From positions 160,001 through 224,000 of the forward strand of contig JBFWNU010000003.1 in assembly GCA_050250895.1 (NCBI GenBank): a stretch of DNA of 64,000 bases, given 5' to 3'. Position 1 is the stretch's first letter. Every line of letters starts with the position of its first letter. Shown here piece after piece: positions 22,241-57,117 of this stretch. The translations under genes and the position numbers were made by a program. This stretch comes from Vulcanimicrobiota bacterium. GTDB lineage: Bacteria > Vulcanimicrobiota > Xenobia > Xenobiales > JADMJV01. The notes below the pieces were generated by a model that worked only from the letters and a program-made list of their open reading frames with translations, made no database searches and was not told where the DNA came from.

Positions 22241-22249
22241 GCTACCTCC

Positions 22250-23638: not shown

Positions 23639-23644
23639 GGACCT

Positions 23645-27659: not shown

Positions 27660-27713
27660 CAGAAATGTCGAATTGTTCAGATTCTGGCAACAACTTTTTG
27701 GTAAGGTGTTGAG

Positions 27714-29123
27714 GTGGCAACGACTATAGGCAATACTCCCTCTTCGGTCACCACGACCGCGCCCTCTCGCCCCGCCACGGTCGCCAGCCAACCCAAAGTC
27801 GAGTCGGGCCCGAAAGAGACTTTCACCCCCGGCGAGCCGGCCGGTCCCCCTAAGCAGAGCGAGGTGCTGGCTCTATTCGCTAAGAATGGCGAGGCCCGCT
27901 CGGCCGCCAGCGACCTGATCCGCAGTGAGGGCGTGGGCGCTCCCGATGCCGAGCAGCGCCAGCGCCTGATGGGCGAGCTGTCCGGGGTCGATAAGGACGT
28001 GTTGCAACTGGCGGCCGACAGCGGCCTGAAATTCGCCGTGGCCGATCCTGGTGACAACCTGGTCGAACTGGGGGCGGTCAAGCCGCTCGACCCTGAAGCC
28101 ATCAAGGCCGATCTCCCTGACATGAAGGCGGCCGGCGACAACTATCTCGAAGCTTCGGGCCCGCTGGCCTCGAAGATGGCCGACCTCTACAACCAGCGAA
28201 ACGCTTATATCCAAGAGAAAGGCTACACCCAAGAGCAGCTGGCGACGGTCGACGATCCCAAGCTGCGCGGCATCGAGTCCCAATTTCTCGAGACCCGTGG
28301 CCAGCTGATGGGCGAGGCCAGCAAGATGCTCGAATCTGGAGTGCGCCAGTTTATCCCGCCCCAGGGGGAAGGGATGCCGCGCACCACCGCTCTCGAGTCG
28401 GTGGCCATCAGCCAGGGAGCCCAGACTCCCGAAGAGATCAAAGAGTTCACCGACATGGTCAAGACGCTCAACGCCGACCGGCTGGCCGGCATGGGCGAGC
28501 GCGGCCTCGCGGCCCTGCAAGCTCAGGCCCAGTCTGGCGACGCCCAACAGGCCGAGCAGGCCAAGGCCTATCTTGAGGCGGCCGAGCGCAAGGGTCTGAC
28601 CATGATCAACTGGCAAGAAGAGCCGCTGATCATTCCCGACATGCAGTATCATCGCGACCCCGACGCTCCCGCTGGCAGCCCCGGTCTGCGGCTGGACACC
28701 CACGACATGAACGTGCTCAACGAGTGGGGCGGGGGCACTACCACCGTCACTCCTTTCAATCCTGACGATCCCAACGGAGCCACCGGCGGCGTGCGACTGC
28801 CCAAGTCCAACCTGGTCTTGTTGCGTAGCGGCGTCGAGGGTGAGGGAGTGCACGAGTTAGGCCACGCCATCGAGGGCATCGTCGAGCAAAAAGATCCTCA
28901 GTTCCATCAGCAGTGGTCGAGCCAGGTGCAGCAAGCCTTCCTCAACGGTCAGGCCAGCGGTCAGGGCGTGACTCGCTACTCGCTGACCAACCCCGACGAA
29001 TACATCGCCGAGGGGTTCTCTCATTTCTACGAAGATCCCCAACTGCTCAAAGCCAAAGACCCGGCGCTGTTCGGCCTGAGTGAACAACTGGTCGCCAGGG
29101 CCCGTGAACTCGGCGCCCAGTGA
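27714..29123 (+). CDS. Zinc metallopeptidase, anthrax lethal factor/Pro-Pro endopeptidase-like C-terminal domain
   Basis: VHELGHAIE plus YSLTNPDEYIAEGF..YEDP..LKAKDP. Confidence 0.8.
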   Translation: MATTIGNTPSSVTTTAPSRPATVASQPKVESGPKETFTPGEPAGPPKQSEVLALFAKNGEARSAASDLIRSEGVGAPDAEQRQRLMGELSGVDKDVLQLAADSGLKFAVADPGDNLVELGAVKPLDPEAIKADLPDMKAAGDNYLEASGPLASKMADLYNQRNAYIQEKGYTQEQLATVDDPKLRGIESQFLETRGQLMGEASKMLESGVRQFIPPQGEGMPRTTALESVAISQGAQTPEEIKEFTDMVKTLNADRLAGMGERGLAALQAQAQSGDAQQAEQAKAYLEAAERKGLTMINWQEEPLIIPDMQYHRDPDAPAGSPGLRLDTHDMNVLNEWGGGTTTVTPFNPDDPNGATGGVRLPKSNLVLLRSGVEGEGVHELGHAIEGIVEQKDPQFHQQWSSQVQQAFLNGQASGQGVTRYSLTNPDEYIAEGFSHFYEDPQLLKAKDPALFGLSEQLVARARELGAQ

Positions 29124-35300: not shown

Positions 35301-36083
35301 ATGAAAAAGCTTCTACCTCTTCTGCTTGCCCTGAGTCTGGGCGCCTCTGCCGACCACACCATCACCATGCGCACTACCTTCGCCGACCCGGCCGCGGGGG
35401 GCATGAAGATGACCTCGACCACCCGCACCAAGAACAAGCGCCAGCGCGTCGAGGATGTGACCGAGATGAGCGGCTTCAAGATGTCCAACATCCGGCTGGT
35501 CATGTGCGACCTCGAGCAAGAGGCGCAACTCGACCCCGACAACAAGATCTATACCGTCCGCAGCATGAATCCCCTCACCTACATGAATCCCGATCCCAAC
35601 AAGCAAACGCAGGTGAACAAAGGCACCGGCAAGATGTCGACCAACGTCAAGGTGCAGGACAAAGGGGTCGAGAAGGTGGCCCAGGTCAACGCTCACCACT
35701 GGATCGTCGACTCGCAGATGAAAGGCACCGGTTGCATCGGTAACTTCGATTACAAGAGCACCCGCGAGTTCTGGACCTCGGACCTGCCGTCGTTCTCCTG
35801 CCCCATCTACAACGGCTCCTGGACCAGCCAGACCATCAACGAGTGCAAGGTCACTAACGAGATGACCGGCGATGTGGCCAAGTTCATGGAGGCGATGTCC
35901 CACGAGGTGGTCAAAGAAATCATCTATGTCGACGGCAAGCCGAGCATGACCCGCGAGCTGGTCGACTTTTCCAAAGCCGCTCTCGAGGATTCGCTGTTTA
36001 GCCTCGACGGCTATCGCAAGGTGTCTGACGCCGAATTTCAGGCGGCTCAGCAGAAGAAGATGATGGAGATGTACCAGCGTTGA
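35301..36083 (+). CDS. Secreted hypothetical protein (DUF4412-like)
   Basis: Signal peptide MKKLLPLLLALSLGASA; beta-rich; LFSLDGYRKV near the end. Confidence 0.75.
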   Translation: MKKLLPLLLALSLGASADHTITMRTTFADPAAGGMKMTSTTRTKNKRQRVEDVTEMSGFKMSNIRLVMCDLEQEAQLDPDNKIYTVRSMNPLTYMNPDPNKQTQVNKGTGKMSTNVKVQDKGVEKVAQVNAHHWIVDSQMKGTGCIGNFDYKSTREFWTSDLPSFSCPIYNGSWTSQTINECKVTNEMTGDVAKFMEAMSHEVVKEIIYVDGKPSMTRELVDFSKAALEDSLFSLDGYRKVSDAEFQAAQQKKMMEMYQR

Positions 36084-36568
36084 GGTGGCTCATCTGTATT
36101 CTCTTGGCGCTGGCCGCGCCGGGTTGGGCCCAACTGCGCGACCTGGACGGAGCGACCCATTCGGTGGCCGGGCTGGCCGCCGGGCAGAAAGCCACGGTGT
36201 TGGTGGTGTGGTGCAGTCGCTGTCACAGCTGCCGGGGCGTCGAGAACGATCTGGCCGCCTTCTCGCGCGACGGAGTCAGGCTGTTTGCGGTCGACCCGCA
36301 TCCAGCCGACGACGCCCAGCGAGTGCGCTCGTTTCTGGCCGAGCAGGGCCTGAGTCTCGAGGTCTTGCTCGACTCTGACCAGAGCTTTCTGCGCCAGTAT
36401 CAGATCGACCGCACCACCACCGCCCTGGTCTTCGACCAGACTGGAAAGCTTCGCTACTTCGGCCCCTTCCAAGACTATGCGGCGGAAGCCGTCGACGAGG
36501 TCCTGGGCGGGCAAGAGGTTACGGTGTCGACTCGTCCATTGCAGGGGTGCCCGATTCCTCGCCCTTAG
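36080..36568 (+). CDS. Exported redoxin (AhpC/TSA/TlpA-like), copy 1
   Basis: Signal peptide, WCSRCHSC, ALVFDQTGKLRYFG, GCPI. Confidence 0.85.
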   Translation: MRWLICILLALAAPGWAQLRDLDGATHSVAGLAAGQKATVLVVWCSRCHSCRGVENDLAAFSRDGVRLFAVDPHPADDAQRVRSFLAEQGLSLEVLLDSDQSFLRQYQIDRTTTALVFDQTGKLRYFGPFQDYAAEAVDEVLGGQEVTVSTRPLQGCPIPRP

Positions 36569-36644
36569 GATAAGTGGACCCATTCGGGCCATTTCTAGGG
36601 CCATGCGCAGGAACCCCTCCGGACTGCGGGAAGAACGGTATTCG

Positions 36645-37805
36645 ATGAACTTCGTTTATCTGTCCCCCCATTTTCCCCCGAATTACCAGGCCTTTTGTAT
36701 CGAGCTGCGTTTGCAGGGGGCGAATGTGCTGGGTCTGGCCGAGGCTCCGTATGATTCTCTCTCGCCCCGTTTGCGCAACGTCTTGACCGAGTATTATCGG
36801 GTCGACGACATGCACGACTATGATCAGCTGGTGCGGGCGTTGGGCTATTTCACGCACCAGTACGGCAAAATCGACCGGCTCGAATCGCACGCCGAGTACT
36901 GGCTCGAGACCGAGGCCAGGCTGCGCACCGACTTCAACATCACCGGTCTGCGCGCCCACGACCTGCCCACCATGAAGCGCAAGTCGCTGATGAAGCAGAA
37001 GTTCATCGAGGCCGGCGTCGAGGTGGTTCGCGGCGAGGTCGCCCGCGATCGCAATCACGCCCTCAAGATCGCTAAGAAGCTGGGCTTTCCGCTGGTGGCC
37101 AAGCCCGACATCGGGGTGGGAGCGGCCGGAACTTTTCGTTTCGACGATGCCGACGCTTTGAGCGCGTTCTACGAGCAGAGCCATCCTCACGACTACATCC
37201 TCGAGCAATACATCGACGGCGTGTTGACCAGCTTCGATGGCCTGGTCGACCGCGATGGCAAGCCGGTGTTGCTGGCCTCGCACGTGTTCTCGGACGGAAT
37301 CATGGACGTGGTCAGCCAGGACCTCGACATGTTTTACTACTCCGAGCGCGAGCTGCCCCAGGACCTCGAGCAGGCCGGCCGGGCGGTGCTGGCCGCCTAT
37401 GGCCTGACCGAACGATTCTTCCATTTCGAGTTCATCCGTCGCCACAGCGACCAGAAGCTGGTCGGCCTCGAGGTCAACATGCGCCCGCCGGGAGGGTTGA
37501 CCACCGACATGTTCAACTTCGCCAACGACATCGATATCTATCGCCAGTGGGCCCGAGTGGTAGTGGGCAAGTCGTTCGAACCCGATCCGGCCCGGCCGTT
37601 TCATTGCTGCTACATCGGTCGCAAGGACAACCGCACCTACCGCCACGACCACGATCAGGTGTTGGCCCGGGCGGGCGACTTGCTGTGCCACGAGGAGCGG
37701 GTCCAATCGGTCTTTCGGGGGGCCATCGGGGATCACGGCTATCTGCTACGTTCACCCCAATTGAACGACTTGCTAGAGGTAGCCAACTACGCTTTGGAGA
37801 GCTAG
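36645..37805 (+). CDS. ATP-grasp domain protein, copy 1
   Basis: MNFVYLSPHFP, AKPDIGVGA, LEQYIDG, FFHFEF, LEVNMRPPG. Confidence 0.9.
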   Translation: MNFVYLSPHFPPNYQAFCIELRLQGANVLGLAEAPYDSLSPRLRNVLTEYYRVDDMHDYDQLVRALGYFTHQYGKIDRLESHAEYWLETEARLRTDFNITGLRAHDLPTMKRKSLMKQKFIEAGVEVVRGEVARDRNHALKIAKKLGFPLVAKPDIGVGAAGTFRFDDADALSAFYEQSHPHDYILEQYIDGVLTSFDGLVDRDGKPVLLASHVFSDGIMDVVSQDLDMFYYSERELPQDLEQAGRAVLAAYGLTERFFHFEFIRRHSDQKLVGLEVNMRPPGGLTTDMFNFANDIDIYRQWARVVVGKSFEPDPARPFHCCYIGRKDNRTYRHDHDQVLARAGDLLCHEERVQSVFRGAIGDHGYLLRSPQLNDLLEVANYALES

Positions 37806-38537
37806 ATGTACGAAACCCATCGCTGGTGGAGCCCCCACCTGGGGCAAGACATGGAATTTCGGGTCTACGGCCATGCTGGCAAGCCCGCCATCGTCTTCCC
37901 TTCGCAAGAGGGGCGTTTCTTCGAGTATCACGACTTCGGCATGGTCGAGGCGGTCAAGCCGTGGCTCGACCAGGGCCGGTTGCGCCTGGTCACGGTCGAT
38001 GGCATCGACGGCCAGAGCTGGCTTAACAACGACATTCATCCTCACCATCGCGCTTTGCGGGCTCACGCTTACGACGCCTACATCATGAACGAGATCGTGC
38101 CGTTCGTCGAAGCCATGGCTCCCGATCAGGGCATCATGCTCACGGGTTGCTCGATGGGTGGTTACCACTCGGCCAACGTCTTTTTCCGCCACCCCGGCCG
38201 CTTCGACACTTTGATCGCCATCAGCGGAGTCTATCGGCTGATGCTGTTCATTGGCGACTACATGGACGAGGAGGTCTACTTCCACGTGCCCCTGGCCTAC
38301 CTGCCCAACCTGCACGACCCGGCGGCGCTCGAGGCTATGCGCCGAGCCCGCATCGTGGTGGTGGTGGGTCAGGGAGCCTGGGAGCACGACATGGTCCACG
38401 ACACCCGCGCCCTCGAGCAGATCCTCCAGTCCAAGAACGTCCCGGCCCGCTTTGACTATTGGGGCCACGATGTCGACCACGACTGGCCCTGGTGGCGCAA
38501 GATGATGCCCCACTTCCTGACCGAACTGGGCATCTAA
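37806..38537 (+). CDS. Alpha/beta-hydrolase esterase, copy 1
   Basis: GCSMGGYH nucleophile elbow, HDWPWW. Confidence 0.9.
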   Translation: MYETHRWWSPHLGQDMEFRVYGHAGKPAIVFPSQEGRFFEYHDFGMVEAVKPWLDQGRLRLVTVDGIDGQSWLNNDIHPHHRALRAHAYDAYIMNEIVPFVEAMAPDQGIMLTGCSMGGYHSANVFFRHPGRFDTLIAISGVYRLMLFIGDYMDEEVYFHVPLAYLPNLHDPAALEAMRRARIVVVVGQGAWEHDMVHDTRALEQILQSKNVPARFDYWGHDVDHDWPWWRKMMPHFLTELGI

Positions 38538-38708
38538 CCCTGAGCGGCCTCTCTGGCCGCTTTCAACCTCGGCATGAGGCTGGGGTGTAAAGTACCGAGC
38601 TTCGGGTTCTGCCCGTGGCGCGGACGAGGTGGGACCGCAAACCATTGTCAATTTGCCTCTTTGGATATCAAGAAGATGTCATGTGAGGAGCGGTTTGTCC
38701 ACTTCGGA

Positions 38709-39263
38709 TTATTTGAAGGGCAATTGGATGCTGGTCGTGGTTTGCGACGTCTGGTCGCGGCTCTGGCCCGAAGCTCCGCGGATGGTGGTGCTGCCTTCGA
38801 TGGTGGCGGTCACCACCGTGTCGGACAGGCGGTCGACCTCGAAGCTGCTGATTTGCCGTCCCAGGATTCGCTGGGGCGCGGCGCCATAGACACTTTCCAG
38901 CACCAGCGTCTCGGGGCCGGCCACCTGACGGATGCGAAAGAGTTCATAAACGGGGCTGCGCGGATCGAAGGGAGTGGCCGGGTCCATCAGCTCGGCCGGG
39001 GCACAGAAGATGACCTCAGAAGCGGTAGCGCCTACTCCAGGAGCATAGATCGCGGTCTGGATTTCGCTGGGGGCGACCGCCGAGCGCAAGATCAGGCTGC
39101 TGCGTTTGGTGGCTTCGCGCAATTGGATCTCCATCTCGACTCGCTGCGTGCCCTGATGGCTGGAAGCGATGAAGCCTCTGAGGGCAAAGGCGAACATGGC
39201 TCCGATGATGCTCAAGAGAGCGACCGACACCAGCAGTTCAGCGATGGTAAAGCCTCGCCTCAT
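38709..39263 (-). CDS. Prepilin-type (PilW/GspJ-like) protein, copy 1
   Basis: MRRG|FTIAELLVSVALL class III signal. Confidence 0.88.
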   Translation of the reverse strand: MRRGFTIAELLVSVALLSIIGAMFAFALRGFIASSHQGTQRVEMEIQLREATKRSSLILRSAVAPSEIQTAIYAPGVGATASEVIFCAPAELMDPATPFDPRSPVYELFRIRQVAGPETLVLESVYGAAPQRILGRQISSFEVDRLSDTVVTATIEGSTTIRGASGQSRDQTSQTTTSIQLPFK

Positions 39264-39682
39264 GGAGCCCGATGCAATCCTTTGAGAGTCACCCCGTGCT
39301 CGACGCCTTTACTTTCCCAATAGAGATTGACCGTGACTTCGAAGAGAAGATAGCCGTAGTTGGCGGGATTGGTGTCCTGTCGAACCATCTGGAGGTTGCG
39401 GGTGTAGCCGGTGCCGGCCGGAAAATTGGCCGTGAAGGGAGCGGCCTCGAGGGCCACGCGAGCGTTGATGGGGTCATTGATAGGAGCCACCTCGGGAAGG
39501 TTGCCGACCCGAACCAGATCGAGCACCTGTCGCGCCACACCCAGGGCTTCATCGGTCTTGGCCGCCTGCTGGGCGCCGCGAAAAGCCGAGATGATCACTC
39601 CCAGCAAAGCCAGCAGCACCAGGCCAAGCACGGCCACGGCCACGATGGTTTCGAGCAGACTCAGGCCACGCGGCGATTTCAC
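39260..39682 (-). CDS. Prepilin-type (PilV-like) protein, copy 1
   Basis: PRG|LSLLETIVAVAVLG; GTG start overlaps the upstream stop. Confidence 0.85.
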   Translation of the reverse strand: MKSPRGLSLLETIVAVAVLGLVLLALLGVIISAFRGAQQAAKTDEALGVARQVLDLVRVGNLPEVAPINDPINARVALEAAPFTANFPAGTGYTRNLQMVRQDTNPANYGYLLFEVTVNLYWESKGVEHGVTLKGLHRAP

Positions 39683-41217
39683 AGCGGCGCCTCGTGCCAA
39701 TAGCGGATACTGAGGTCGCTGCCGGCCGTGGTGGGAAAGCGCGGCGGCGGTTCGTTAGCTAGCGTCGCATCATAGATGATGTTGGGCGTGCCGTAGCCGT
39801 TCAGGCCACCCATGCCGGCCAGGGTGGTCCCGTCCGCCGGATTGAACAGGTTGTAGTCGGGAGTGTGTCCGCTCGAGATGCCGCCATAGATGGCCATGCG
39901 TCCCGGGGCGCTGGTGGTGGCATTCTGCACCGAAAGCCGGTCGCGGGCCATGATGGTGGCATAGAGCGAGAGAGGATCGGTCGAGTTGCGAGGGATGAGA
40001 GCGGTGTTGCCGGTGATCTCGACCCGATTGGCCACGATGCCGAGTCGATCGCTGGTCGAGGTGGGCTTGCTGCCATCCGGGGTGTCGGCGCGCAAGATGT
40101 CGCCGGTGATGACGATGTTCTTCAGAGCGGCGTGGTCGACCGCCACCGTGTGGGCGTTCTTGTTGGTGCCCGAGAAGCTGGCGATGTTGCCGTTAGAGAA
40201 GATGACTCCGGTGCCCATCCCGGGCACGGTGACAGGCGCACCAGAAGGCGGAGTGACGATGCGCGTGCTCGAGACGGAGTCCTCTTCGACGGTGGTCGTC
40301 TGACCGGCCTGAACGATGGTGAGGACGAAGTTGCCCGAGCCGTTCACGTTCATGGTCATGGCATCGACATCGCCATCGATAAAGACTCCGCCGGCGGGGT
40401 TGACGGTCACACCGGCGGGAGGGGCCGGAGGCGGGTTGCCGCCCCAGGCGGCCGAGGCCTGGGCGATGGCGCTGGTGGGCATGGGAATGGGAGCAACGCC
40501 TGCTTGCACCTCGCTGAGGCCGCCGGTCACCAGGCGGTCGTACCCGTCCCCGTACGAATACGGCGCGTTGGAACTCGAGTAGTAGTGGATGCCATCGGGG
40601 CTGCTGGCATCTACGCCTGAGCTGGTGATCCGCCCATCGATGGCCGGTGTCGCCGGAGCAGGCCCGGTGAAATAGCTCTGACTGATGTACATCCGCAACA
40701 CGCCGTTGTGATGAACCGGGCCCTCGCTCTTCCAGCCCTGGCCGATGACGACATCCCAAAGCCCGCCCGAGGACAGGTCGGTGAATTCTCCGAACTCGGC
40801 GAAGCTCTGGCCGGCCTGGACCCAGGCCACGATCTGCCAGCGATCGCCGCCATCGCGCGAGGCCCGCGAGGTCAGGCGATAGAGACGAATGGTGTCGATG
40901 CCGTTGGGTGGCGTTTGGGGGTCGGCCTCGATCTGGCAAGACCAGTCCCAGTTGCCCAGGCTGCCGGTGCGCACCGGCGAGGGCGTGACCGTGTTGCACG
41001 GTTCGCCAGCGTTGGCCAGGGTGTGAGCGATCCAGGCCATCGAATCGCGCACGCCCGCATCGGCGGCCAGCGACGCCTCGGTGTCGATGCGATTCTTGGT
41101 GGCCGCCGCCAGGTCGGTGGGCACCACCAGCATGAAGCCCGCGGCCAGGCCCGTCAACAGGAGAACTCCCAGCAGCGCCACCATCATCGCGGCGCCTCGT
41201 CGTGAAATTGATACCAC
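39679..41217 (-). CDS. PilX-like minor pilin with large beta-rich domain, copy 1
   Basis: RRG|AAMMVALLGVLLL (no Glu5), ASLAADAGV, EGPVHHNG, EPPPRFP. Confidence 0.8.
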   Translation of the reverse strand: MVSISRRGAAMMVALLGVLLLTGLAAGFMLVVPTDLAAATKNRIDTEASLAADAGVRDSMAWIAHTLANAGEPCNTVTPSPVRTGSLGNWDWSCQIEADPQTPPNGIDTIRLYRLTSRASRDGGDRWQIVAWVQAGQSFAEFGEFTDLSSGGLWDVVIGQGWKSEGPVHHNGVLRMYISQSYFTGPAPATPAIDGRITSSGVDASSPDGIHYYSSSNAPYSYGDGYDRLVTGGLSEVQAGVAPIPMPTSAIAQASAAWGGNPPPAPPAGVTVNPAGGVFIDGDVDAMTMNVNGSGNFVLTIVQAGQTTTVEEDSVSSTRIVTPPSGAPVTVPGMGTGVIFSNGNIASFSGTNKNAHTVAVDHAALKNIVITGDILRADTPDGSKPTSTSDRLGIVANRVEITGNTALIPRNSTDPLSLYATIMARDRLSVQNATTSAPGRMAIYGGISSGHTPDYNLFNPADGTTLAGMGGLNGYGTPNIIYDATLANEPPPRFPTTAGSDLSIRYWHEAPL

Positions 41218-41237
41218 CTGGGAACTATAGCACATTC

Positions 41238-41817
41238 GTGCGACCTCGAGCAAGAGGCGCAACTCGACCCCGACAACAAGATCTATACCGTCCGCAGCAT
41301 GAATCCCCTCACCTACATGAATCCCGATCCCAACAAGCAAACGCAGGTGAACAAAGGCACCGGCAAGATGTCGACCAACGTCAAGGTGCAGGACAAAGGG
41401 GTCGAGAAGGTGGCCCAGGTCAACGCTCACCACTGGATCGTCGACTCGCAGATGAAAGGCACCGGTTGCATCGGTAACTTCGATTACAAGAGCACCCGCG
41501 AGTTCTGGACCTCGGACCTGCCGTCGTTCTCCTGCCCCATCTACAACGGCTCCTGGACCAGCCAGACCATCAACGAGTGCAAGGTCACTAACGAGATGAC
41601 CGGCGATGTGGCCAAGTTCATGGAGGCGATGTCCCACGAGGTGGTCAAAGAAATCATCTATGTCGACGGCAAGCCGAGCATGACCCGCGAGCTGGTCGAC
41701 TTTTCCAAAGCCGCTCTCGAGGATTCGCTGTTTAGCCTCGACGGCTATCGCAAGGTGTCTGACGCCGAATTTCAGGCGGCTCAGCAGAAGAAGATGATGG
41801 AGATGTACCAGCGTTGA
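41238..41817 (+). pseudogene. 5'-truncated copy of the 35301-36083 gene created by the duplication junction
   Basis: Lacks the first 203 bp, including start codon and signal peptide. Confidence 0.85.
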
Positions 41818-42302
41818 GGTGGCTCATCTGTATTCTCTTGGCGCTGGCCGCGCCGGGTTGGGCCCAACTGCGCGACCTGGACGGAGCGACCCATTCGGTG
41901 GCCGGGCTGGCCGCCGGGCAGAAAGCCACGGTGTTGGTGGTGTGGTGCAGTCGCTGTCACAGCTGCCGGGGCGTCGAGAACGATCTGGCCGCCTTCTCGC
42001 GCGACGGAGTCAGGCTGTTTGCGGTCGACCCGCATCCAGCCGACGACGCCCAGCGAGTGCGCTCGTTTCTGGCCGAGCAGGGCCTGAGTCTCGAGGTCTT
42101 GCTCGACTCTGACCAGAGCTTTCTGCGCCAGTATCAGATCGACCGCACCACCACCGCCCTGGTCTTCGACCAGACTGGAAAGCTTCGCTACTTCGGCCCC
42201 TTCCAAGACTATGCGGCGGAAGCCGTCGACGAGGTCCTGGGCGGGCAAGAGGTTACGGTGTCGACTCGTCCATTGCAGGGGTGCCCGATTCCTCGCCCTT
42301 AG
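41814..42302 (+). CDS. Exported redoxin, copy 2
   Basis: Identical translation to 36080-36568. Confidence 0.85.
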   Translation: MRWLICILLALAAPGWAQLRDLDGATHSVAGLAAGQKATVLVVWCSRCHSCRGVENDLAAFSRDGVRLFAVDPHPADDAQRVRSFLAEQGLSLEVLLDSDQSFLRQYQIDRTTTALVFDQTGKLRYFGPFQDYAAEAVDEVLGGQEVTVSTRPLQGCPIPRP

Positions 42303-42378
42303 GATAAGTGGACCCATTCGGGCCATTTCTAGGGCCATGCGCAGGAACCCCTCCGGACTGCGGGAAGAACGGTATTCG

Positions 42379-43539
42379 ATGAACTTCGTTTATCTGTCCC
42401 CCCATTTTCCCCCGAATTACCAGGCCTTTTGTATCGAGCTGCGTTTGCAGGGGGCGAATGTGCTGGGTCTGGCCGAGGCTCCGTATGATTCTCTCTCGCC
42501 CCGTTTGCGCAACGTCTTGACCGAGTATTATCGGGTCGACGACATGCACGACTATGATCAGCTGGTGCGGGCGTTGGGCTATTTCACGCACCAGTACGGC
42601 AAAATCGACCGGCTCGAATCGCACGCCGAGTACTGGCTCGAGACCGAGGCCAGGCTGCGCACCGACTTCAACATCACCGGTCTGCGCGCCCACGACCTGC
42701 CCACCATGAAGCGCAAGTCGCTGATGAAGCAGAAGTTCATCGAGGCCGGCGTCGAGGTGGTTCGCGGCGAGGTCGCCCGCGATCGCAATCACGCCCTCAA
42801 GATCGCTAAGAAGCTGGGCTTTCCGCTGGTGGCCAAGCCCGACATCGGGGTGGGAGCGGCCGGAACTTTTCGTTTCGACGATGCCGACGCTTTGAGCGCG
42901 TTCTACGAGCAGAGCCATCCTCACGACTACATCCTCGAGCAATACATCGACGGCGTGTTGACCAGCTTCGATGGCCTGGTCGACCGCGATGGCAAGCCGG
43001 TGTTGCTGGCCTCGCACGTGTTCTCGGACGGAATCATGGACGTGGTCAGCCAGGACCTCGACATGTTTTACTACTCCGAGCGCGAGCTGCCCCAGGACCT
43101 CGAGCAGGCCGGCCGGGCGGTGCTGGCCGCCTATGGCCTGACCGAACGATTCTTCCATTTCGAGTTCATCCGTCGCCACAGCGACCAGAAGCTGGTCGGC
43201 CTCGAGGTCAACATGCGCCCGCCGGGAGGGTTGACCACCGACATGTTCAACTTCGCCAACGACATCGATATCTATCGCCAGTGGGCCCGAGTGGTAGTGG
43301 GCAAGTCGTTCGAACCCGATCCGGCCCGGCCGTTTCATTGCTGCTACATCGGTCGCAAGGACAACCGCACCTACCGCCACGACCACGATCAGGTGTTGGC
43401 CCGGGCGGGCGACTTGCTGTGCCACGAGGAGCGGGTCCAATCGGTCTTTCGGGGGGCCATCGGGGATCACGGCTATCTGCTACGTTCACCCCAATTGAAC
43501 GACTTGCTAGAGGTAGCCAACTACGCTTTGGAGAGCTAG
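42379..43539 (+). CDS. ATP-grasp domain protein, copy 2
   Basis: Identical translation to copy 1. Confidence 0.9.
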   Translation: MNFVYLSPHFPPNYQAFCIELRLQGANVLGLAEAPYDSLSPRLRNVLTEYYRVDDMHDYDQLVRALGYFTHQYGKIDRLESHAEYWLETEARLRTDFNITGLRAHDLPTMKRKSLMKQKFIEAGVEVVRGEVARDRNHALKIAKKLGFPLVAKPDIGVGAAGTFRFDDADALSAFYEQSHPHDYILEQYIDGVLTSFDGLVDRDGKPVLLASHVFSDGIMDVVSQDLDMFYYSERELPQDLEQAGRAVLAAYGLTERFFHFEFIRRHSDQKLVGLEVNMRPPGGLTTDMFNFANDIDIYRQWARVVVGKSFEPDPARPFHCCYIGRKDNRTYRHDHDQVLARAGDLLCHEERVQSVFRGAIGDHGYLLRSPQLNDLLEVANYALES

Positions 43540-44271
43540 ATGTACGAAACCCATCGCTGGTGGAGCCCCCACCTGGGGCAAGACATGGAATTTCGGGTCT
43601 ACGGCCATGCTGGCAAGCCCGCCATCGTCTTCCCTTCGCAAGAGGGGCGTTTCTTCGAGTATCACGACTTCGGCATGGTCGAGGCGGTCAAGCCGTGGCT
43701 CGACCAGGGCCGGTTGCGCCTGGTCACGGTCGATGGCATCGACGGCCAGAGCTGGCTTAACAACGACATTCATCCTCACCATCGCGCTTTGCGGGCTCAC
43801 GCTTACGACGCCTACATCATGAACGAGATCGTGCCGTTCGTCGAAGCCATGGCTCCCGATCAGGGCATCATGCTCACGGGTTGCTCGATGGGTGGTTACC
43901 ACTCGGCCAACGTCTTTTTCCGCCACCCCGGCCGCTTCGACACTTTGATCGCCATCAGCGGAGTCTATCGGCTGATGCTGTTCATTGGCGACTACATGGA
44001 CGAGGAGGTCTACTTCCACGTGCCCCTGGCCTACCTGCCCAACCTGCACGACCCGGCGGCGCTCGAGGCTATGCGCCGAGCCCGCATCGTGGTGGTGGTG
44101 GGTCAGGGAGCCTGGGAGCACGACATGGTCCACGACACCCGCGCCCTCGAGCAGATCCTCCAGTCCAAGAACGTCCCGGCCCGCTTTGACTATTGGGGCC
44201 ACGATGTCGACCACGACTGGCCCTGGTGGCGCAAGATGATGCCCCACTTCCTGACCGAACTGGGCATCTAA
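43540..44271 (+). CDS. Alpha/beta-hydrolase esterase, copy 2
   Basis: Identical translation to copy 1. Confidence 0.9.
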   Translation: MYETHRWWSPHLGQDMEFRVYGHAGKPAIVFPSQEGRFFEYHDFGMVEAVKPWLDQGRLRLVTVDGIDGQSWLNNDIHPHHRALRAHAYDAYIMNEIVPFVEAMAPDQGIMLTGCSMGGYHSANVFFRHPGRFDTLIAISGVYRLMLFIGDYMDEEVYFHVPLAYLPNLHDPAALEAMRRARIVVVVGQGAWEHDMVHDTRALEQILQSKNVPARFDYWGHDVDHDWPWWRKMMPHFLTELGI

Positions 44272-44442
44272 CCCTGAGCGGCCTCTCTGGCCGCTTTCAA
44301 CCTCGGCATGAGGCTGGGGTGTAAAGTACCGAGCTTCGGGTTCTGCCCGTGGCGCGGACGAGGTGGGACCGCAAACCATTGTCAATTTGCCTCTTTGGAT
44401 ATCAAGAAGATGTCATGTGAGGAGCGGTTTGTCCACTTCGGA

Positions 44443-44997
44443 TTATTTGAAGGGCAATTGGATGCTGGTCGTGGTTTGCGACGTCTGGTCGCGGCTCTGG
44501 CCCGAAGCTCCGCGGATGGTGGTGCTGCCTTCGATGGTGGCGGTCACCACCGTGTCGGACAGGCGGTCGACCTCGAAGCTGCTGATTTGCCGTCCCAGGA
44601 TTCGCTGGGGCGCGGCGCCATAGACACTTTCCAGCACCAGCGTCTCGGGGCCGGCCACCTGACGGATGCGAAAGAGTTCATAAACGGGGCTGCGCGGATC
44701 GAAGGGAGTGGCCGGGTCCATCAGCTCGGCCGGGGCACAGAAGATGACCTCAGAAGCGGTAGCGCCTACTCCAGGAGCATAGATCGCGGTCTGGATTTCG
44801 CTGGGGGCGACCGCCGAGCGCAAGATCAGGCTGCTGCGTTTGGTGGCTTCGCGCAATTGGATCTCCATCTCGACTCGCTGCGTGCCCTGATGGCTGGAAG
44901 CGATGAAGCCTCTGAGGGCAAAGGCGAACATGGCTCCGATGATGCTCAAGAGAGCGACCGACACCAGCAGTTCAGCGATGGTAAAGCCTCGCCTCAT
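44443..44997 (-). CDS. Prepilin-type (PilW/GspJ-like) protein, copy 2
   Basis: Identical translation to copy 1. Confidence 0.88.
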   Translation of the reverse strand: MRRGFTIAELLVSVALLSIIGAMFAFALRGFIASSHQGTQRVEMEIQLREATKRSSLILRSAVAPSEIQTAIYAPGVGATASEVIFCAPAELMDPATPFDPRSPVYELFRIRQVAGPETLVLESVYGAAPQRILGRQISSFEVDRLSDTVVTATIEGSTTIRGASGQSRDQTSQTTTSIQLPFK

Positions 44998-45416
44998 GGA
45001 GCCCGATGCAATCCTTTGAGAGTCACCCCGTGCTCGACGCCTTTACTTTCCCAATAGAGATTGACCGTGACTTCGAAGAGAAGATAGCCGTAGTTGGCGG
45101 GATTGGTGTCCTGTCGAACCATCTGGAGGTTGCGGGTGTAGCCGGTGCCGGCCGGAAAATTGGCCGTGAAGGGAGCGGCCTCGAGGGCCACGCGAGCGTT
45201 GATGGGGTCATTGATAGGAGCCACCTCGGGAAGGTTGCCGACCCGAACCAGATCGAGCACCTGTCGCGCCACACCCAGGGCTTCATCGGTCTTGGCCGCC
45301 TGCTGGGCGCCGCGAAAAGCCGAGATGATCACTCCCAGCAAAGCCAGCAGCACCAGGCCAAGCACGGCCACGGCCACGATGGTTTCGAGCAGACTCAGGC
45401 CACGCGGCGATTTCAC
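44994..45416 (-). CDS. Prepilin-type (PilV-like) protein, copy 2
   Basis: Identical translation to copy 1. Confidence 0.85.
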   Translation of the reverse strand: MKSPRGLSLLETIVAVAVLGLVLLALLGVIISAFRGAQQAAKTDEALGVARQVLDLVRVGNLPEVAPINDPINARVALEAAPFTANFPAGTGYTRNLQMVRQDTNPANYGYLLFEVTVNLYWESKGVEHGVTLKGLHRAP

Positions 45417-46951
45417 AGCGGCGCCTCGTGCCAATAGCGGATACTGAGGTCGCTGCCGGCCGTGGTGGGAAAGCGCGGCGGCGGTTCGTTAGCTAGCGTC
45501 GCATCATAGATGATGTTGGGCGTGCCGTAGCCGTTCAGGCCACCCATGCCGGCCAGGGTGGTCCCGTCCGCCGGATTGAACAGGTTGTAGTCGGGAGTGT
45601 GTCCGCTCGAGATGCCGCCATAGATGGCCATGCGTCCCGGGGCGCTGGTGGTGGCATTCTGCACCGAAAGCCGGTCGCGGGCCATGATGGTGGCATAGAG
45701 CGAGAGAGGATCGGTCGAGTTGCGAGGGATGAGAGCGGTGTTGCCGGTGATCTCGACCCGATTGGCCACGATGCCGAGTCGATCGCTGGTCGAGGTGGGC
45801 TTGCTGCCATCCGGGGTGTCGGCGCGCAAGATGTCGCCGGTGATGACGATGTTCTTCAGAGCGGCGTGGTCGACCGCCACCGTGTGGGCGTTCTTGTTGG
45901 TGCCCGAGAAGCTGGCGATGTTGCCGTTAGAGAAGATGACTCCGGTGCCCATCCCGGGCACGGTGACAGGCGCACCAGAAGGCGGAGTGACGATGCGCGT
46001 GCTCGAGACGGAGTCCTCTTCGACGGTGGTCGTCTGACCGGCCTGAACGATGGTGAGGACGAAGTTGCCCGAGCCGTTCACGTTCATGGTCATGGCATCG
46101 ACATCGCCATCGATAAAGACTCCGCCGGCGGGGTTGACGGTCACACCGGCGGGAGGGGCCGGAGGCGGGTTGCCGCCCCAGGCGGCCGAGGCCTGGGCGA
46201 TGGCGCTGGTGGGCATGGGAATGGGAGCAACGCCTGCTTGCACCTCGCTGAGGCCGCCGGTCACCAGGCGGTCGTACCCGTCCCCGTACGAATACGGCGC
46301 GTTGGAACTCGAGTAGTAGTGGATGCCATCGGGGCTGCTGGCATCTACGCCTGAGCTGGTGATCCGCCCATCGATGGCCGGTGTCGCCGGAGCAGGCCCG
46401 GTGAAATAGCTCTGACTGATGTACATCCGCAACACGCCGTTGTGATGAACCGGGCCCTCGCTCTTCCAGCCCTGGCCGATGACGACATCCCAAAGCCCGC
46501 CCGAGGACAGGTCGGTGAATTCTCCGAACTCGGCGAAGCTCTGGCCGGCCTGGACCCAGGCCACGATCTGCCAGCGATCGCCGCCATCGCGCGAGGCCCG
46601 CGAGGTCAGGCGATAGAGACGAATGGTGTCGATGCCGTTGGGTGGCGTTTGGGGGTCGGCCTCGATCTGGCAAGACCAGTCCCAGTTGCCCAGGCTGCCG
46701 GTGCGCACCGGCGAGGGCGTGACCGTGTTGCACGGTTCGCCAGCGTTGGCCAGGGTGTGAGCGATCCAGGCCATCGAATCGCGCACGCCCGCATCGGCGG
46801 CCAGCGACGCCTCGGTGTCGATGCGATTCTTGGTGGCCGCCGCCAGGTCGGTGGGCACCACCAGCATGAAGCCCGCGGCCAGGCCCGTCAACAGGAGAAC
46901 TCCCAGCAGCGCCACCATCATCGCGGCGCCTCGTCGTGAAATTGATACCAC
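45413..46951 (-). CDS. PilX-like minor pilin, copy 2 (native upstream region)
   Basis: Identical to copy 1; extended -10 TGCTATAGT just upstream of the GTG. Confidence 0.8.
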   Translation of the reverse strand: MVSISRRGAAMMVALLGVLLLTGLAAGFMLVVPTDLAAATKNRIDTEASLAADAGVRDSMAWIAHTLANAGEPCNTVTPSPVRTGSLGNWDWSCQIEADPQTPPNGIDTIRLYRLTSRASRDGGDRWQIVAWVQAGQSFAEFGEFTDLSSGGLWDVVIGQGWKSEGPVHHNGVLRMYISQSYFTGPAPATPAIDGRITSSGVDASSPDGIHYYSSSNAPYSYGDGYDRLVTGGLSEVQAGVAPIPMPTSAIAQASAAWGGNPPPAPPAGVTVNPAGGVFIDGDVDAMTMNVNGSGNFVLTIVQAGQTTTVEEDSVSSTRIVTPPSGAPVTVPGMGTGVIFSNGNIASFSGTNKNAHTVAVDHAALKNIVITGDILRADTPDGSKPTSTSDRLGIVANRVEITGNTALIPRNSTDPLSLYATIMARDRLSVQNATTSAPGRMAIYGGISSGHTPDYNLFNPADGTTLAGMGGLNGYGTPNIIYDATLANEPPPRFPTTAGSDLSIRYWHEAPL

Positions 46952-47007
46952 CTGGGAACTATAGCACATTCTCACGGTAGATGTCGGGGTCGTGAGCGAG
47001 AAGTGTC

Positions 47008-53815: not shown

Positions 53816-54430
53816 GTGGTGGAATATGAAAGCTTACGCGCGTGTGCCCTGGCAGGTGCCCTTACCGAGGACGATTGGCGATCCATTCGCAGGCAGGCTC
53901 GCCAGGGTGACGTTGGGGCCGAGTTTCTCCTGGGCTTTGCCGACGTTTCGCCGAGAACGCGCCGCAAGTGGCTGACTCGGGCCGCCGACCACGGCCACGC
54001 CGAGGCCTTCTTTCTCTTGCATGGTGGCTATCCTATTCACAACGCGGGCGGCTGGCTCGAGCGCTCGGCCGAGCGAGGTTGCGCCGAGGCCCAATCCGCG
54101 CTCGGGTGCTATTACGCCTGGGAGCCGAATCGCGATGAGGTGAAAATGCGTTATTGGTATGGCCAGGCCGCTCTCCAGGGTGGTGGAGTGGCGATGTATG
54201 AATTTGGCTTTAGCCTGTTGCTGGGCGAAGGTGGGCCGGCCGACCCCGAGGGCGCGGTGGCCTGGCTCGAAAAGGCCGCCGCCACCGATGCTCACACGGC
54301 AGAAGAGGCGCGGGGCTTGTTGGGTGATGTGCTCAGCGACGGCCTTTACGGTGTCGCTCGCGACCCTGAGCGGGCGGAGTATTGGAGAGCCCCTCACTTC
54401 CGGCCGGAAGTGGTGAGCAAGTGGGGATAG
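53816..54430 (+). CDS. Sel1/TPR repeat protein
   Basis: WLTRAADHGHAEA, WLERSAERGCAEAQ, WYGQAALQG, WLEKAA. Confidence 0.88.
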   Translation: MVEYESLRACALAGALTEDDWRSIRRQARQGDVGAEFLLGFADVSPRTRRKWLTRAADHGHAEAFFLLHGGYPIHNAGGWLERSAERGCAEAQSALGCYYAWEPNRDEVKMRYWYGQAALQGGGVAMYEFGFSLLLGEGGPADPEGAVAWLEKAAATDAHTAEEARGLLGDVLSDGLYGVARDPERAEYWRAPHFRPEVVSKWG

Positions 54431-56209
54431 ACTCTGGCGAAAAGGCGGGCGGCTAGAACTTGCTCGAGGCTGAGATGGGGATGGGCGCGCTGAAACGATG
54501 GCCAGTCGCCCCGGACTTCCCTGTCCCACTGCACCACCTGGGCAACATCCGTGCCCCCTCAGTTCACCAGTCGGGGGCGGGGCGGGTTGTCGGAGAGCAC
54601 GATTCCCAGGCACGTTCCGGCCGGAAGTGCGACTCGCGGCGGGAGCGCCCCCCGGTCGTGCGGGGCCCTGGAGACAAGGCTCTAGTTATCGTACCAGGGA
54701 ACGTAGGGCTGGATGAGGGTCAGTTCTGCGATCACTCCTTTCTCTTCGCTCACGTGGAGTTCGAAAGGCCACACTTTGTAATACCCGTCATCGGCGGGGC
54801 CGAGGTGAGCTGAGATTCGCACGACCGGGTCGCCGAGCGCCGCGATGAGTTGACCATCCAGATACAGTCGCTGGCCGGTGATGCGCGGGTTGAAAGGGTG
54901 CCGATGCCACTCGGCCCCGGCGGCGTCAATTTCTTGCTCGGAGTTGGCTGGAGTGACTCCGTTGATGGTTAGCTCTCGACGGGGATATTCGACCATCGGC
55001 AGCCCGCGGGAAGTTCCGGCCGGAAGTCCAAAAAGTGAGATTTTACGCCATTTTCGCTTGTTGTTTGGGGTTGAAAAATGCTAAAATATTGGTATTCCCC
55101 CGAACCACTCCCTGGAGGTCCTATGTCTCTTTCCACGCTTGTTTCCAGCCTGCGTCAACTCGGCCCCGAGCTGCTGCATCAGTGCAACCAGGCCGTCCGC
55201 CACGAACTAGCTCGCAGCGAGTGGACCATGGCCGCCCACCTGCTGGCCACCGAACGGACCGGACTGCATCGCAAGAAGGGTTATGGCGACGTGCTCGGCT
55301 ATGCCGAGAAGTTGCTCGACCTGCCACGCTACAAGGCCTGCGAGTTGCTGCGGGTGGCGCGAGCGTTCGAGCTCATGCCTGACCTCTCCGAGGCCTTTCG
55401 CACGGGCGAAATCGGCTGGACCAAGGTGCGCGAGATCACGCGAGTGGCCACTCCCAAGACCGAAGCGACCTGGCTTGAACGGGCTCGCCAGCACGACGCC
55501 GACACAGTGGCCCGCATGGTCTCGGTGTCGCCCACCGAGTATAAGCGGGGCAAGGCGCTCGAAGCCGCACGAGAAGCTGGGCAGAGTGTGCCCGAGCAGG
55601 CAAACGCGCCCGAGGTGATCCCGCAGCTGATCAACCTGACGCTGCGGTTTACGCCCGAGCAGTATGCGGTCTTCGAACAGGCTATCAGCCTGGCCCGAGC
55701 CCGGGCGGGCAAGCGGCTCAGCCGAGAGGTCGCTCTGGTGGCTCTGTCAGAAGCGACCCTGGCGCAGGCCGACAGTCGCAGCCAGGTTAGACATCAGGTG
55801 CTGATCCAGCTCGATCCGTTGAGCGGCAAGGGTTTCTACGACACCGAACGCGGGCCACTGCCGGCCCCGCAGCGAGTGGTCGACGAGGCGCTGGCCTCGG
55901 GACCGGCCGTGGTCGAGGGTGAGCAACTTGAACCCCCGCTGCCGGTGAAAACCGGGCCTCGCCAGGCGATCCCGGTGAAGGAATACCGGGTGGTGTTCGC
56001 CCGGGCCCGGGGGCGGTGCGAGAATTGTGGGTGCAAAGGCGGACCGCTGCATGTCCACCATGTTCGCCCGCGCTCTCGGGGCGGTGGCAACCGGGCATGC
56101 GAATTGAGGTTGCTGTGTCCTGGTTGTCATCGGGCCAGTCACGACCACGACTTCGCCACCGACGCCGGCTGGCGGGCGGCCAGAGAGGCGGCCACTTCCG
56201 GCCGGAAGT
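54395..56209. repeat. Four dispersed copies of the palindrome TTCCGGCCGGAA around HNH-2
   Basis: CACTTCCGGCCGGAAGTG 54395-54412; 54615-54626; 55014-55025; ACTTCCGGCCGGAAGT 56194-56209. Confidence 0.92.
54682..54996 (-). CDS. Small hypothetical protein, possibly a 5'-truncated fragment
   Basis: 104 aa between palindromes 2 and 3; no RBS; palindrome 17 bp upstream of the ATG. Confidence 0.55.
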   Translation of the reverse strand: MVEYPRRELTINGVTPANSEQEIDAAGAEWHRHPFNPRITGQRLYLDGQLIAALGDPVVRISAHLGPADDGYYKVWPFELHVSEEKGVIAELTLIQPYVPWYDN

Positions 56210-56445
56210 CAGGGCCGGCCGCGCAGCAAGTGGAGGTCACCGAATTCGTGCCAGAGATAGCCATGCTCGATGGCGGAGGCGTAGTCGCGAGCCAGTCGCT
56301 CGCGGCCGGCTATGGCCTCGAGCATGGCCAGGTGGCTGGCTTTGGGCTCGTGAAAGCCGGTGAGCAGGTCGTCGACCACGGCCAGGGGGCGGTCGGGAGT
56401 GATGACCAGCTCGGTCCAGCCGCTCGGGGGGCCGGCGTGGGCTGA
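55123..56445 (+). CDS. DUF222-like HNH endonuclease (HNH-2)
   Basis: RBS GGAGG; GEIGWTKVREITRVATPKTEATWL; RARGRCENCGC..LHVHHVRPRSRGG..LLCPGCHRASH; last ~78 codons are antisense read-through of queA. Confidence 0.88.
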   Translation: MSLSTLVSSLRQLGPELLHQCNQAVRHELARSEWTMAAHLLATERTGLHRKKGYGDVLGYAEKLLDLPRYKACELLRVARAFELMPDLSEAFRTGEIGWTKVREITRVATPKTEATWLERARQHDADTVARMVSVSPTEYKRGKALEAAREAGQSVPEQANAPEVIPQLINLTLRFTPEQYAVFEQAISLARARAGKRLSREVALVALSEATLAQADSRSQVRHQVLIQLDPLSGKGFYDTERGPLPAPQRVVDEALASGPAVVEGEQLEPPLPVKTGPRQAIPVKEYRVVFARARGRCENCGCKGGPLHVHHVRPRSRGGGNRACELRLLCPGCHRASHDHDFATDAGWRAAREAATSGRKSGPAAQQVEVTEFVPEIAMLDGGGVVASQSLAAGYGLEHGQVAGFGLVKAGEQVVDHGQGAVGSDDQLGPAARGAGVG

Positions 56446-57117
56446 CTCGAGGGCTCGCACCACGGTGGTTCCGACCGCGATGACGCGGCGGGCTCGGCGG
56501 GCAGCCTGCAGGGTGCGTTCGGGGACGGAGTAGTATTCGGGATAGGGCGGCTCGGGGTTCTCGAGCGAAGACACGCCGGTGTGAAGGGTGATGGGGCTCA
56601 GGGCTACGCCCTTTAGCACCAGCCGGGCCAGCAAAGCGGGAGTGAAGGCGCGGCCGGCCGAGGGCATTTCGGCCGAGCCGGGATGGCGGGCGAAGACCGT
56701 CTGGTAGTAATCGAGGGGCCAGTCGCCTTCGAGGTAGGCGTAGCGAATGGGACGTCCCCAGCGGTGCAGGTAGTCCAGGTCGACGCCTACGCGGGCTAGC
56801 TGCAGGCGCTGCGAGCCGCGGTAGGGACCGAGCAGTTCGAGGGTGGTGTGGGGCAGGGAGTGGTCGGGGCCGCGGGGCTCGACCACCCACAGGTCGGGGG
56901 CCAGCTGGGCCGAGAAGTGGATCTGGCCGACCGCGGCCGGGAGGGTGGCCGAGTCGTTGTAGACGATCAGGTCGCCGGGTTCGAGCACCTCGGGTAGGTC
57001 GCGAAAGAGCAGATGGCGTCCGTCAGCTAGCAAGCGCACCTGGTCGCGAGCCAGGCCGCGGGCTTCGGGGGGCTGGCGGGCCTCGAGGCGGGTGGGCAGT
57101 TGGAAGTCGAGCGTCAT
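56209..57117 (-). CDS. queA: S-adenosylmethionine:tRNA ribosyltransferase-isomerase family protein (short QueA-like type)
   Basis: GDLIVYNDS, YQTVFARHPGSAEMPSAG, AVGTTVVRALES, LTGFHEP, HEFGD. Confidence 0.88.
   Translation of the reverse strand: MTLDFQLPTRLEARQPPEARGLARDQVRLLADGRHLLFRDLPEVLEPGDLIVYNDSATLPAAVGQIHFSAQLAPDLWVVEPRGPDHSLPHTTLELLGPYRGSQRLQLARVGVDLDYLHRWGRPIRYAYLEGDWPLDYYQTVFARHPGSAEMPSAGRAFTPALLARLVLKGVALSPITLHTGVSSLENPEPPYPEYYSVPERTLQAARRARRVIAVGTTVVRALESAHAGPPSGWTELVITPDRPLAVVDDLLTGFHEPKASHLAMLEAIAGRERLARDYASAIEHGYLWHEFGDLHLLRGRP

Follow-up and report, generated by a model that had tools for sequence, protein, structure and literature searches.

A palindrome in the last conserved codons of a DUF222-like/HNH gene delimits a small array of probably mobile DNA modules in Vulcanimicrobiota

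In a 64,000-nucleotide stretch of a Vulcanimicrobiota genome (contig JBFWNU010000003.1, positions 160,001 to 224,000; hereafter the window, in which all coordinates are counted), four copies of a 12-bp palindrome, TTCCGGCCGGAA, bound three modules of 205, 387 and 1170 bp between cores, and the largest module carries a gene for a DUF222-like/HNH protein, HNH-2. The array occupies the gap between two convergent genes, a Sel1-repeat gene on the plus strand and queA on the minus strand. Taking together three readings, in which the modules move by means of the nuclease, of a recombinase or as one composite element, we consider it probable that small mobile DNA modules end or join at the palindrome, and that the module to which the palindrome belongs is the HNH gene. 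As our main reading, we tentatively propose that the nuclease drives insertion at the palindrome and that the site is regenerated on both sides of the insert. What we observe in its favor are the four identical sites, the module boundaries that they form, the palindrome within the 3′ end of the HNH gene, the loss of homology at the right edge of the palindrome in several contexts, and the lack of a stop codon belonging to the HNH gene itself. The features of the array and its flanks are as follows.

53816..54430, plus strand: Sel1-repeat gene, 204 aa, left flank (Pfam Sel1, 41 bits)
54395..54412, no strand: palindrome copy 1, CACTTCCGGCCGGAAGTG, a perfect 18-bp palindrome with its core at 54398-54409
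54410..54614, no strand: module A, 205 bp, 65% G+C, no convincing open reading frame (ORF)
54615..54626, no strand: palindrome copy 2, ACGTTCCGGCCGGAAGTG, 15/18 matches to copy 1
54627..55013, no strand: module B, 387 bp, one minus-strand gene
54682..54996, minus strand: ORF104, gene-like codon usage, one homologue
55014..55025, no strand: palindrome copy 3, AAGTTCCGGCCGGAAGTC, 15/18 matches, between the divergent starts of ORF104 and HNH-2
55026..55122, plus strand: AT-rich leader of the HNH module, 97 bp, 43% G+C
55026..56195, plus strand: module C (leader and HNH-2), 1170 bp, between copies 3 and 4
55123..56208, plus strand: HNH-2, family-conserved part, 362 codons, DUF222-like N-terminal and HNH C-terminal domains
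56196..56207, no strand: palindrome copy 4, CACTTCCGGCCGGAAGTC, 17/18 matches, inside the HNH-2 frame
56209..56445, plus strand: run-on tail of the HNH-2 frame, 78 codons and stop, antisense to queA, without a counterpart in any homologue
56209..57117, minus strand: queA, 302 aa, complete, right flank (Pfam Queuosine_synth, 215 bits, model positions 4-322 of 322)

The 12-mer occurs exactly at 54398-54409, 54615-54626, 55014-55025 and 56196-56207 and nowhere else in the window, for which Markov models of order 0 to 5 predict 0.005 to 0.010 sites per 64 kb. The original prediction, made from the sequence alone, had claimed four palindromic cores in 1.8 kb, segments of about 200, 390 and 1170 bp, and about 0.01 chance copies per 64 kb, and the measured values agree with it on all three counts. 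Only two additional sites are found when one mismatch is allowed, TGCCGGCCGGAA at 39412 and 45146, and these are a single site counted twice, at equivalent positions in the two copies of a perfect tandem duplication with a 5,734-bp unit. The six matches obtained at this tolerance were not reached in any of 100 dinucleotide shuffles, and with the second copy of the duplication excluded, the 12-mers and 14-mers of the palindrome are the most repeated words of the window. All four copies share the 14-mer TTCCGGCCGGAAGT, whose orientation is the same in each (GT stands at the right in 4/4 copies, AC at the left in 2/4). While the cores are identical, the sequences flanking them are unrelated. Measured against the perfect 18-bp palindrome of copy 1, copy 4 matches at 17 of the 18 positions and copies 2 and 3 at 15, and a scan of the window with up to three mismatches to the 18-bp palindrome yielded no site beyond the four copies. 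The remaining ~62 kb of the window holds no further copy of the kind that dispersal like that of repetitive extragenic palindromes (REP) or bacterial interspersed mosaic elements would leave.

In other genomes, the 16-mer ACTTCCGGCCGGAAGT was found at no fewer than 118 loci, and of the 118 listed (872,616 bases), 116 have one copy and 2 have two. These loci belong to unrelated taxa, the frequency is close to the chance rate by a rough estimate, and no relative of HNH-2, HNH-1 (a distant paralogue of HNH-2 in the window) or ORF104 lies near the 16-mer at any of them. The possibility that the 12-mer is a common dispersed repeat, which the original prediction had named as the finding that would undo it, is therefore not borne out in these genomes. 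A contig of a Patescibacteria metagenome-assembled genome (MAG; contig L077, positions 6144 and 6781) has two long hairpin palindromes around the same 12-mer core, 637 nt apart and in an unrelated context.

Folded as single strands, three of the four sites do no better than shuffled sequences (z of −0.41, +0.78, +0.11 and −2.37 for copies 1 to 4). Copy 4 with its flanks reaches −11.9 kcal/mol (z −2.4), and 5 of 200 shuffles fold equally well. Such weak folding fits recognition of the sites as duplex DNA. A consensus scan of the array found nothing terminator-like or promoter-like; because of this and the weak folding, a purely structural role of the palindromes, as a terminator, a REP hairpin or a folded attC site, is poorly supported.

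The right-hand end of the array ties the palindrome to the HNH gene. Copy 4 is read in the HNH-2 frame as GCC ACT TCC GGC CGG AAG, that is A-T-S-G-R-K, and TSGRK are the last conserved residues of the protein. The frame has no stop codon of its own and continues, antisense to queA, as far as 56445. A single nucleotide separates the end of copy 4 from the queA stop codon (56209-56211, where TCA is its complement), and because this stop codon starts so close to the palindrome, HNH-derived sequence must end there. That copy 4 touches the queA stop, as had been claimed, is thus correct to within 1 nt; the claim overlooked that copy 4 also lies inside the stop-less HNH-2 frame. The closest relatives of HNH-2 (69-71% identical, 356-398 residues long, two of them named Vulcanimicrobiota MAG proteins) align to it from residue 1 to about residue 360, where the alignment ends. 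TSGRK is present in 3 of the 71 relatives (P0001, P0002 and P0007), and one-residue variants in two others (TSARK in P0004, TSVRK in P0006). Past the motif, the tails all differ: SGPAAQQ.. in the window, and GAG-stop, RAGAASPAR.. and RPDEVPGRAR.. in relatives. The pair P0002 and P0007 gives the sharpest view of the break, with 87% identity over 228 aa and 47 of the last 48 aligned residues identical; their alignment stops at ATSGRKR, beyond which the tails, of 41 and 33 residues, are unrelated. Without gaps, they are identical at 39 of 40 positions before the motif and at 3 of 30 after it. At the protein level, in relatives that lie on other contigs, similarity is lost within one codon past TSGRK. 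Because the similarity of the relatives ends at the residues that the palindrome encodes, the palindrome appears to be the end of a mobile HNH unit. A gene that is ended by whichever stop codon its neighbor supplies, in several neighborhoods, would be expected of a mobile unit bounded in its last codons. On the sequence evidence, the palindrome is part of the conserved 3′ end of the HNH gene and not a neutral delimiter beside HNH-2. The original prediction looked for homologues truncated at the palindrome rather than running through it; the HNH homologues do run through the palindrome, and it is at its right edge that their similarity stops.

At the left-hand end, copy 1 lies within codons 195-198 of the 204 codons of the Sel1 gene, in agreement with its predicted position in the last codons. 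The final 12 codons of this gene (PHFRPEVVSKWG) include copy 1 and are not common to its homologues; in an alignment with seven homologues (51-62% identity), conservation stops at ..EYWRA, two codons ahead of copy 1. This end of conservation is only consistent with a boundary at copy 1, as the tails of the homologues are short and variable anyway. G+C content is uniform and host-like over the modules (63-67% around the leader), the leader excepted, and no duplication flanks the HNH module alone. The product of queA is matched by NCBIfam QueA models with scores under their cut-offs. Further out are a major facilitator superfamily transporter gene upstream of Sel1 and a short-chain dehydrogenase gene beyond queA.

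HNH-2 is the sole enzyme encoded inside the array. Its C-terminal part matches Pfam HNH (PF01844, 32.7 bits; cut-off, 21.4), and its N-terminal part resembles DUF222 (PF02720, 21.6 bits, E = 1.6e-4) with a score under the cut-off of 24.4. More distant relatives from the same search carry PF02720, and many relatives have PF02720 together with PF01844. Residues C299, C302, H312, H313, C332, C335, H336 and H340 are invariant in the alignment of relatives, so that all Cys/His ligands are present. A profile search of solved structures returned HNH domains only (IscB, McrA, intron maturase). In the AlphaFold2 monomer model, the mean predicted local distance difference test (pLDDT) is 80, and it exceeds 90 for residues 1-135. 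A fold search with this model gave no match at E ≤ 0.001; the nearest to the HNH domain was McrA, and the N-terminal domain bears a faint, non-significant resemblance to ParB/Noc DNA-binding domains. A homodimer model of residues 1-362 scored 0.80, compared with 0.00 for the best control. Among proteins solved as one-chain pairs, 20 of 30 reached the mark for a dimer, as did 1 of 23 solved as single chains; these counts are only approximate for HNH-2 because a custom alignment was used. The dimer runs share at least 75% of contacts, with a partner pLDDT of at least 66, and the predicted symmetric interface spans residues 2-216, in the N-terminal helical domain. The modeling thus suggests that HNH-2 may dimerize.

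Upstream of HNH-2, inspection by eye of the leader picks out TGCTAAAAT at 55079-55087 and GGAGG at 55114-55118, and a consensus scan found no sigma-70 site in it; of the promoter that had been predicted ahead of HNH-2, only the AT-rich 97-bp leader is left. None of the 62 ORF translations scanned in the window matches a recombinase or transposase family, as the original prediction had said of integrases and transposases. Searches of plasmid records with HNH-2 returned matches to the HNH domain only, in 11 haloarchaeal plasmids and each covering at most 20% of the query, and searches of phage records returned none. Among assembled genome contigs, a pattern search for HNH-2 relatives gave 50 matches, of which none was confirmed. 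HNH-2 itself is absent from the protein-database matches, although its neighbors ORF104 and Sel1 are present there letter for letter; gene callers may have missed it on account of the run-on frame that overlaps queA.

The two smaller modules have less to identify them. Module A matches no RNA family and resembles neither the HNH family nor the other modules. Rfam gave no match at gathering thresholds (two sub-threshold matches had E near 1) and no tRNA was found, and comparisons of the modules with each other and with the rest of the window produced chance-level short matches only. We considered whether modules A and B are decayed HNH genes and rejected this: among 1,674 six-frame pieces of the window, an HNH-family profile matched just HNH-2 (672 bits) and HNH-1 (82 bits), the next-best piece scored 7 bits, and a frame across modules A and B (54457-54810) scored −3.9 bits. 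ORF104, in module B, has a coding score of +0.22 in frame versus −0.48 and −0.91 out of frame. Among 1.84 billion representatives, it has one genuine homologue, P0083 (173 aa, E = 2.6e-16; 43% identity over 109 aa by BLASTP). It matches no family in Pfam, NCBIfam or PADLOC, its only match in PHROGs is not significant (phrog_19599, E = 0.07, 14.2 bits), and its AlphaFold2 model is poor (pLDDT 45). Look-alikes in a structure atlas, which serve as a lead only, are small and mostly viral hypothetical proteins. In the ORF104 search, fn3 and LamG proteins gave weak repeat matches that look like strand-motif noise and were set aside.

The paralogue HNH-1 (23651-24703) is 27% identical to HNH-2 and lies in a 3-kb stretch (21704-24880) between direct repeats of about 180 nt (21704-21888 and 24704-24880), whose 118-nt core is 83% identical. 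The second of these repeats begins right past the HNH-1 stop codon. The interior of the stretch (21950-23250), where G+C content looks lower, contains two minus-strand ORFs without a Pfam family. The boundary of HNH-1 differs in kind from that of HNH-2.

Elsewhere in the window, the tandem duplication mentioned above consists of two 100% identical copies of 5,734 bp (35504-41237 and 41238-46971). Its ORFs are of AhpC/redoxin-like, ATP-grasp and esterase type, and two others bear prepilin-type N-methylation motifs; the duplication may have arisen recently or be an assembly artefact. Two tandem 40-nt units (21539-21619, 85% identical), each a long hairpin palindrome, are located just downstream of a 1,423-aa gene with an InhA-like MAM domain. 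The ORF at 27705-29123 has weak C-terminal Pfam matches to ATLF (28.9 bits) and Peptidase_M90 (26.4 bits), both near the cut-offs, and probably contains a small metalloprotease domain. An EVE-domain protein gene (14309-14806, 210 bits) is found directly upstream of cytochrome bd oxidase genes.

Under the reading that we tentatively favor, a homodimer of the HNH protein would bind the two-fold symmetric site through its N-terminal helical domain and nick or cut it. Repair would then close the break with DNA that has the same palindrome at its ends, either copied or ligated in. The repair step would be an ectopic, microhomology-guided form of homing. The insert would gain an intact palindrome on each side, and its homology to other copies would end exactly at the palindrome. 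Several such events at a single site already resident between Sel1 and queA would have left module A (non-coding), module B (ORF104) and module C (the HNH gene with its own leader). The palindrome-ended relatives hint at movement of selfish HNH nuclease genes, and a subfamily whose unit ends exactly at a palindrome offers a testable handle on that movement, in which site and protein are defined and a dimer is predicted. Should insertion be driven by the nuclease itself, the array would be a platform for gene capture without an integrase. A bolder conjecture, which we think unlikely, is that DUF222-type HNH endonucleases are the engine of unrecognized, recombinase-free mobile cassettes: the dimer would cut the palindrome in its own last codons, repair would copy palindrome-bounded DNA into the cut sites, and integron-like arrays would grow without an integrase.

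Several points weigh against nuclease-driven insertion. We infer both the recognition and cleavage of the palindrome by the HNH protein and the route of repair. Joining DNA is not an activity of HNH nucleases, so this reading has to call on host repair, and intact sites on both sides would expose the gene to its own enzyme, which is a difficulty for it. The array is a single locus. Insertion or capture at the palindrome, as originally predicted, suits the HNH module, whose relatives lose similarity past TSGRK; the analysis yielded no evidence of separate insertion of modules A and B. These two modules show no sign of independent mobility, ORF104 has no homologue other than P0083, and a separate arrival of A and B by serial insertion is unproven. 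Among the HNH relatives, the close relatives P0003 and P0005 are without the motif and end in ARERAKR and ARKKAKR, while P0001, P0002 and P0004 have a faint common (R)AG/(R)AK past it, so that in some copies the break may sit a few bases past the palindrome. The evidence from relatives is at the level of protein, and protein tails readily diverge. The source contig probably carries at least one more member of the HNH-2 subfamily, the 71%-identical P0003, which lacks TSGRK, and in the window itself HNH-1 is not flanked by the palindrome.

The array could also have been assembled by a site-specific recombinase encoded elsewhere (Xer-like, integrase-like or serine), with the 14-mer as an att-like common core. 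Circular one-site modules would enter a resident site, leaving direct copies of the core between modules, and the HNH gene would be a passenger cassette whose site overlaps its 3′ end, as attC often does. The sites of Xer recombinases, attC sites and serine-integrase sites are longer than the 12-18 bp in common here, and no recombinase was found among the ORFs scanned in the 64 kb, although cores that are identical in different flanks, the single orientation of all four 14-mers, the presence of no more than one gene per module, and the break of HNH homology at the site edge are all as this explanation would have them. It leaves unexplained why the site lies in the coding sequence of a nuclease family in several genomes, and the predicted homodimer would already give the HNH protein the needed symmetry. 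Recombination sites with partial dyad symmetry are described as "<50 bp" (PMC1470463), and the common block here is shorter. Precedents exist nonetheless for the absence of a local recombinase and for the kind of site: dif modules are described as using the host XerCD, so that a missing local recombinase is normal; PAISt of Streptomyces turgidiscabies is described as using an 8-bp palindrome at a gene 3′ end and undergoing modular excision among three copies (PMC4057263); and phiRv1, a serine-recombinase user, has its attachment site within the DUF222/HNH repeat REP13E12 (PMC9317374, PMC13061034). On balance, we regard a recombinase acting in trans as possible, if somewhat doubtful.

Movement of the whole array at once is rather improbable in our estimation. 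In that case, a composite 1.8-kb element (54397-56208) with the genes ORF104 and HNH-2 would have been inserted in a single event, copies 1 and 4 would be its ends, and copies 2 and 3 would be internal protein-binding sites, as in transposons with several subterminal sites. The better match of the outer copies (18/18 and 17/18 versus 15/18 for the inner ones) and the uniform, host-like G+C content of the modules apart from the leader would suit such an element, and when 54394-56208 is removed in silico, queA stays intact and Sel1 ends in a tail of 17 residues. A palindrome can act as a terminal inverted repeat, and the TCA that directly flanks both outer 14-mers (54394-54396 and 56209-56211) could be a 3-bp target duplication; it could also be chance, as a 3-bp match has a probability of 1/64 even before the choice of boundary is taken into account. 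The HNH relatives break at the palindrome adjoining the gene, which argues that the HNH unit moves alone; no ORF104 homologue is found among the visible neighbors of HNH relatives, with one homologue in all, and the scan of window ORFs found no transposase family. The remaining alternatives, regulation or termination, inversion, and chance, are minor. If the sites, rather than being mobile junctions, served a dimeric regulator as operators or formed terminator hairpins where Sel1, ORF104, HNH-2 and queA end, the position of three of the four copies at gene 3′ ends and the folding of copy 4 (z −2.4) would be accounted for. We consider this very unlikely, since copy 3 lies between two gene starts, copies 1 to 3 fold no better than shuffled sequences, the scan gave no terminator-like site, the ~62 kb outside the array hold no copy, 14 identical bases at four places are unlike convergent terminators, and operators within coding 3′ ends are unusual. 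Hardly any weight is given to segments that are flipped, as in invertons or shufflons, by an invertase encoded elsewhere, with the result that Sel1 and HNH-2 would receive other C-terminal tails or a promoter would be turned round. Any palindrome is its own inverted repeat, two of the sites are within the last codons of genes, and known invertible promoters are similar in size to the 205- and 387-bp segments. The inverted tails would, however, be short and without recognizable domains, the 14-mers are all in direct orientation, the window has no invertase, and the differing downstream contexts of the HNH relatives would be left unexplained.

Compared with known systems, the array resembles dif modules, PAISt modules and integron cassettes and departs from them in the defining features that were tested, namely the length and architecture of the sites, how they fold, and the presence of a recombinase alongside. 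The sites of Acinetobacter plasmid dif modules (pdif, recombined by XerC/XerD) are 28 bp long (two 11-bp arms around a 6-bp spacer) and alternate in orientation. The array shares with these modules a small size and often one gene per module, a short and partly symmetric site and the lack of a recombinase alongside; unlike them, it has 12-18 bp in common, no spacer and one orientation, it is chromosomal and in an uncultured lineage, and the nuclease gene of one module contains the site. If a recombinase acts in trans, a little-known phylum would have in this array a chromosomal equivalent of dif modules. Sites of the attC type are imperfect palindromes of 55-140 bp that end in RYYYAAC...GTTRRRY and undergo recombination as folded single strands. 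Integron cassettes and CALIN arrays are similar in having single-gene, promoterless or self-promoted cassettes and a site that sits at the 3′ end of the ORF or overlaps it, and in that the integrase may be missing (no intI-type family match was found among the 62 scanned ORFs of the window, and it is absent in CALINs too). In contrast to attC, the sites here are perfect palindromes of 12-18 bp that fold weakly and are without RYYYAAC/GTTRRRY. PAISt is described as likewise integrating at a palindrome at the 3′ end of a host gene (TTCATGAA, 8 bp), with modular excision among three copies (PMC4057263); this island is large and conjugative and encodes a tyrosine recombinase of its own, whereas the modules here are 0.2-1.2 kb and no recombinase was found.

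Free-standing homing endonuclease genes also place a nuclease gene exactly at a specific DNA site and in different genomic contexts. Classical homing, however, splits and destroys its target and needs long flanking homology, whereas here an intact site stands on both sides. An insertion sequence or transposon would have a transposase, of which the window scan found no family. The closest comparison is with the REP13E12/DUF222-HNH family of actinobacteria, to which the 13E12 repeats of M. tuberculosis belong. DUF222-HNH genes are abundant and prone to recombination. Both families are multi-copy and selfish-looking, and the architecture is the same, with an N-terminal DUF222-type helical domain and a C-terminal HNH domain; HNH-2 differs in its sub-cut-off DUF222 score and in its phylum, with its nearest relatives in Vulcanimicrobiota MAGs. 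REP13E12 is described as a repeated element, a recombination hotspot and a prophage attachment site (PMC10589994, PMC9317374, PMC13061034), and the M. tuberculosis repeats as being without a defined biological function (PMC13061034). In the accessible literature on DUF222-HNH genes, REP13E12 and palindromic HNH cassettes, from which subscription journals were largely absent, we found neither a palindrome bounding such genes nor a description of how DUF222-HNH genes move. By its architecture, HNH-2 would belong with the DUF222-HNH (REP13E12-type) proteins, its DUF222 score being under the curated cut-off. If the recombinase-free cassettes that we conjecture are real, they would give a mechanism to this large REP13E12/DUF222-HNH family.

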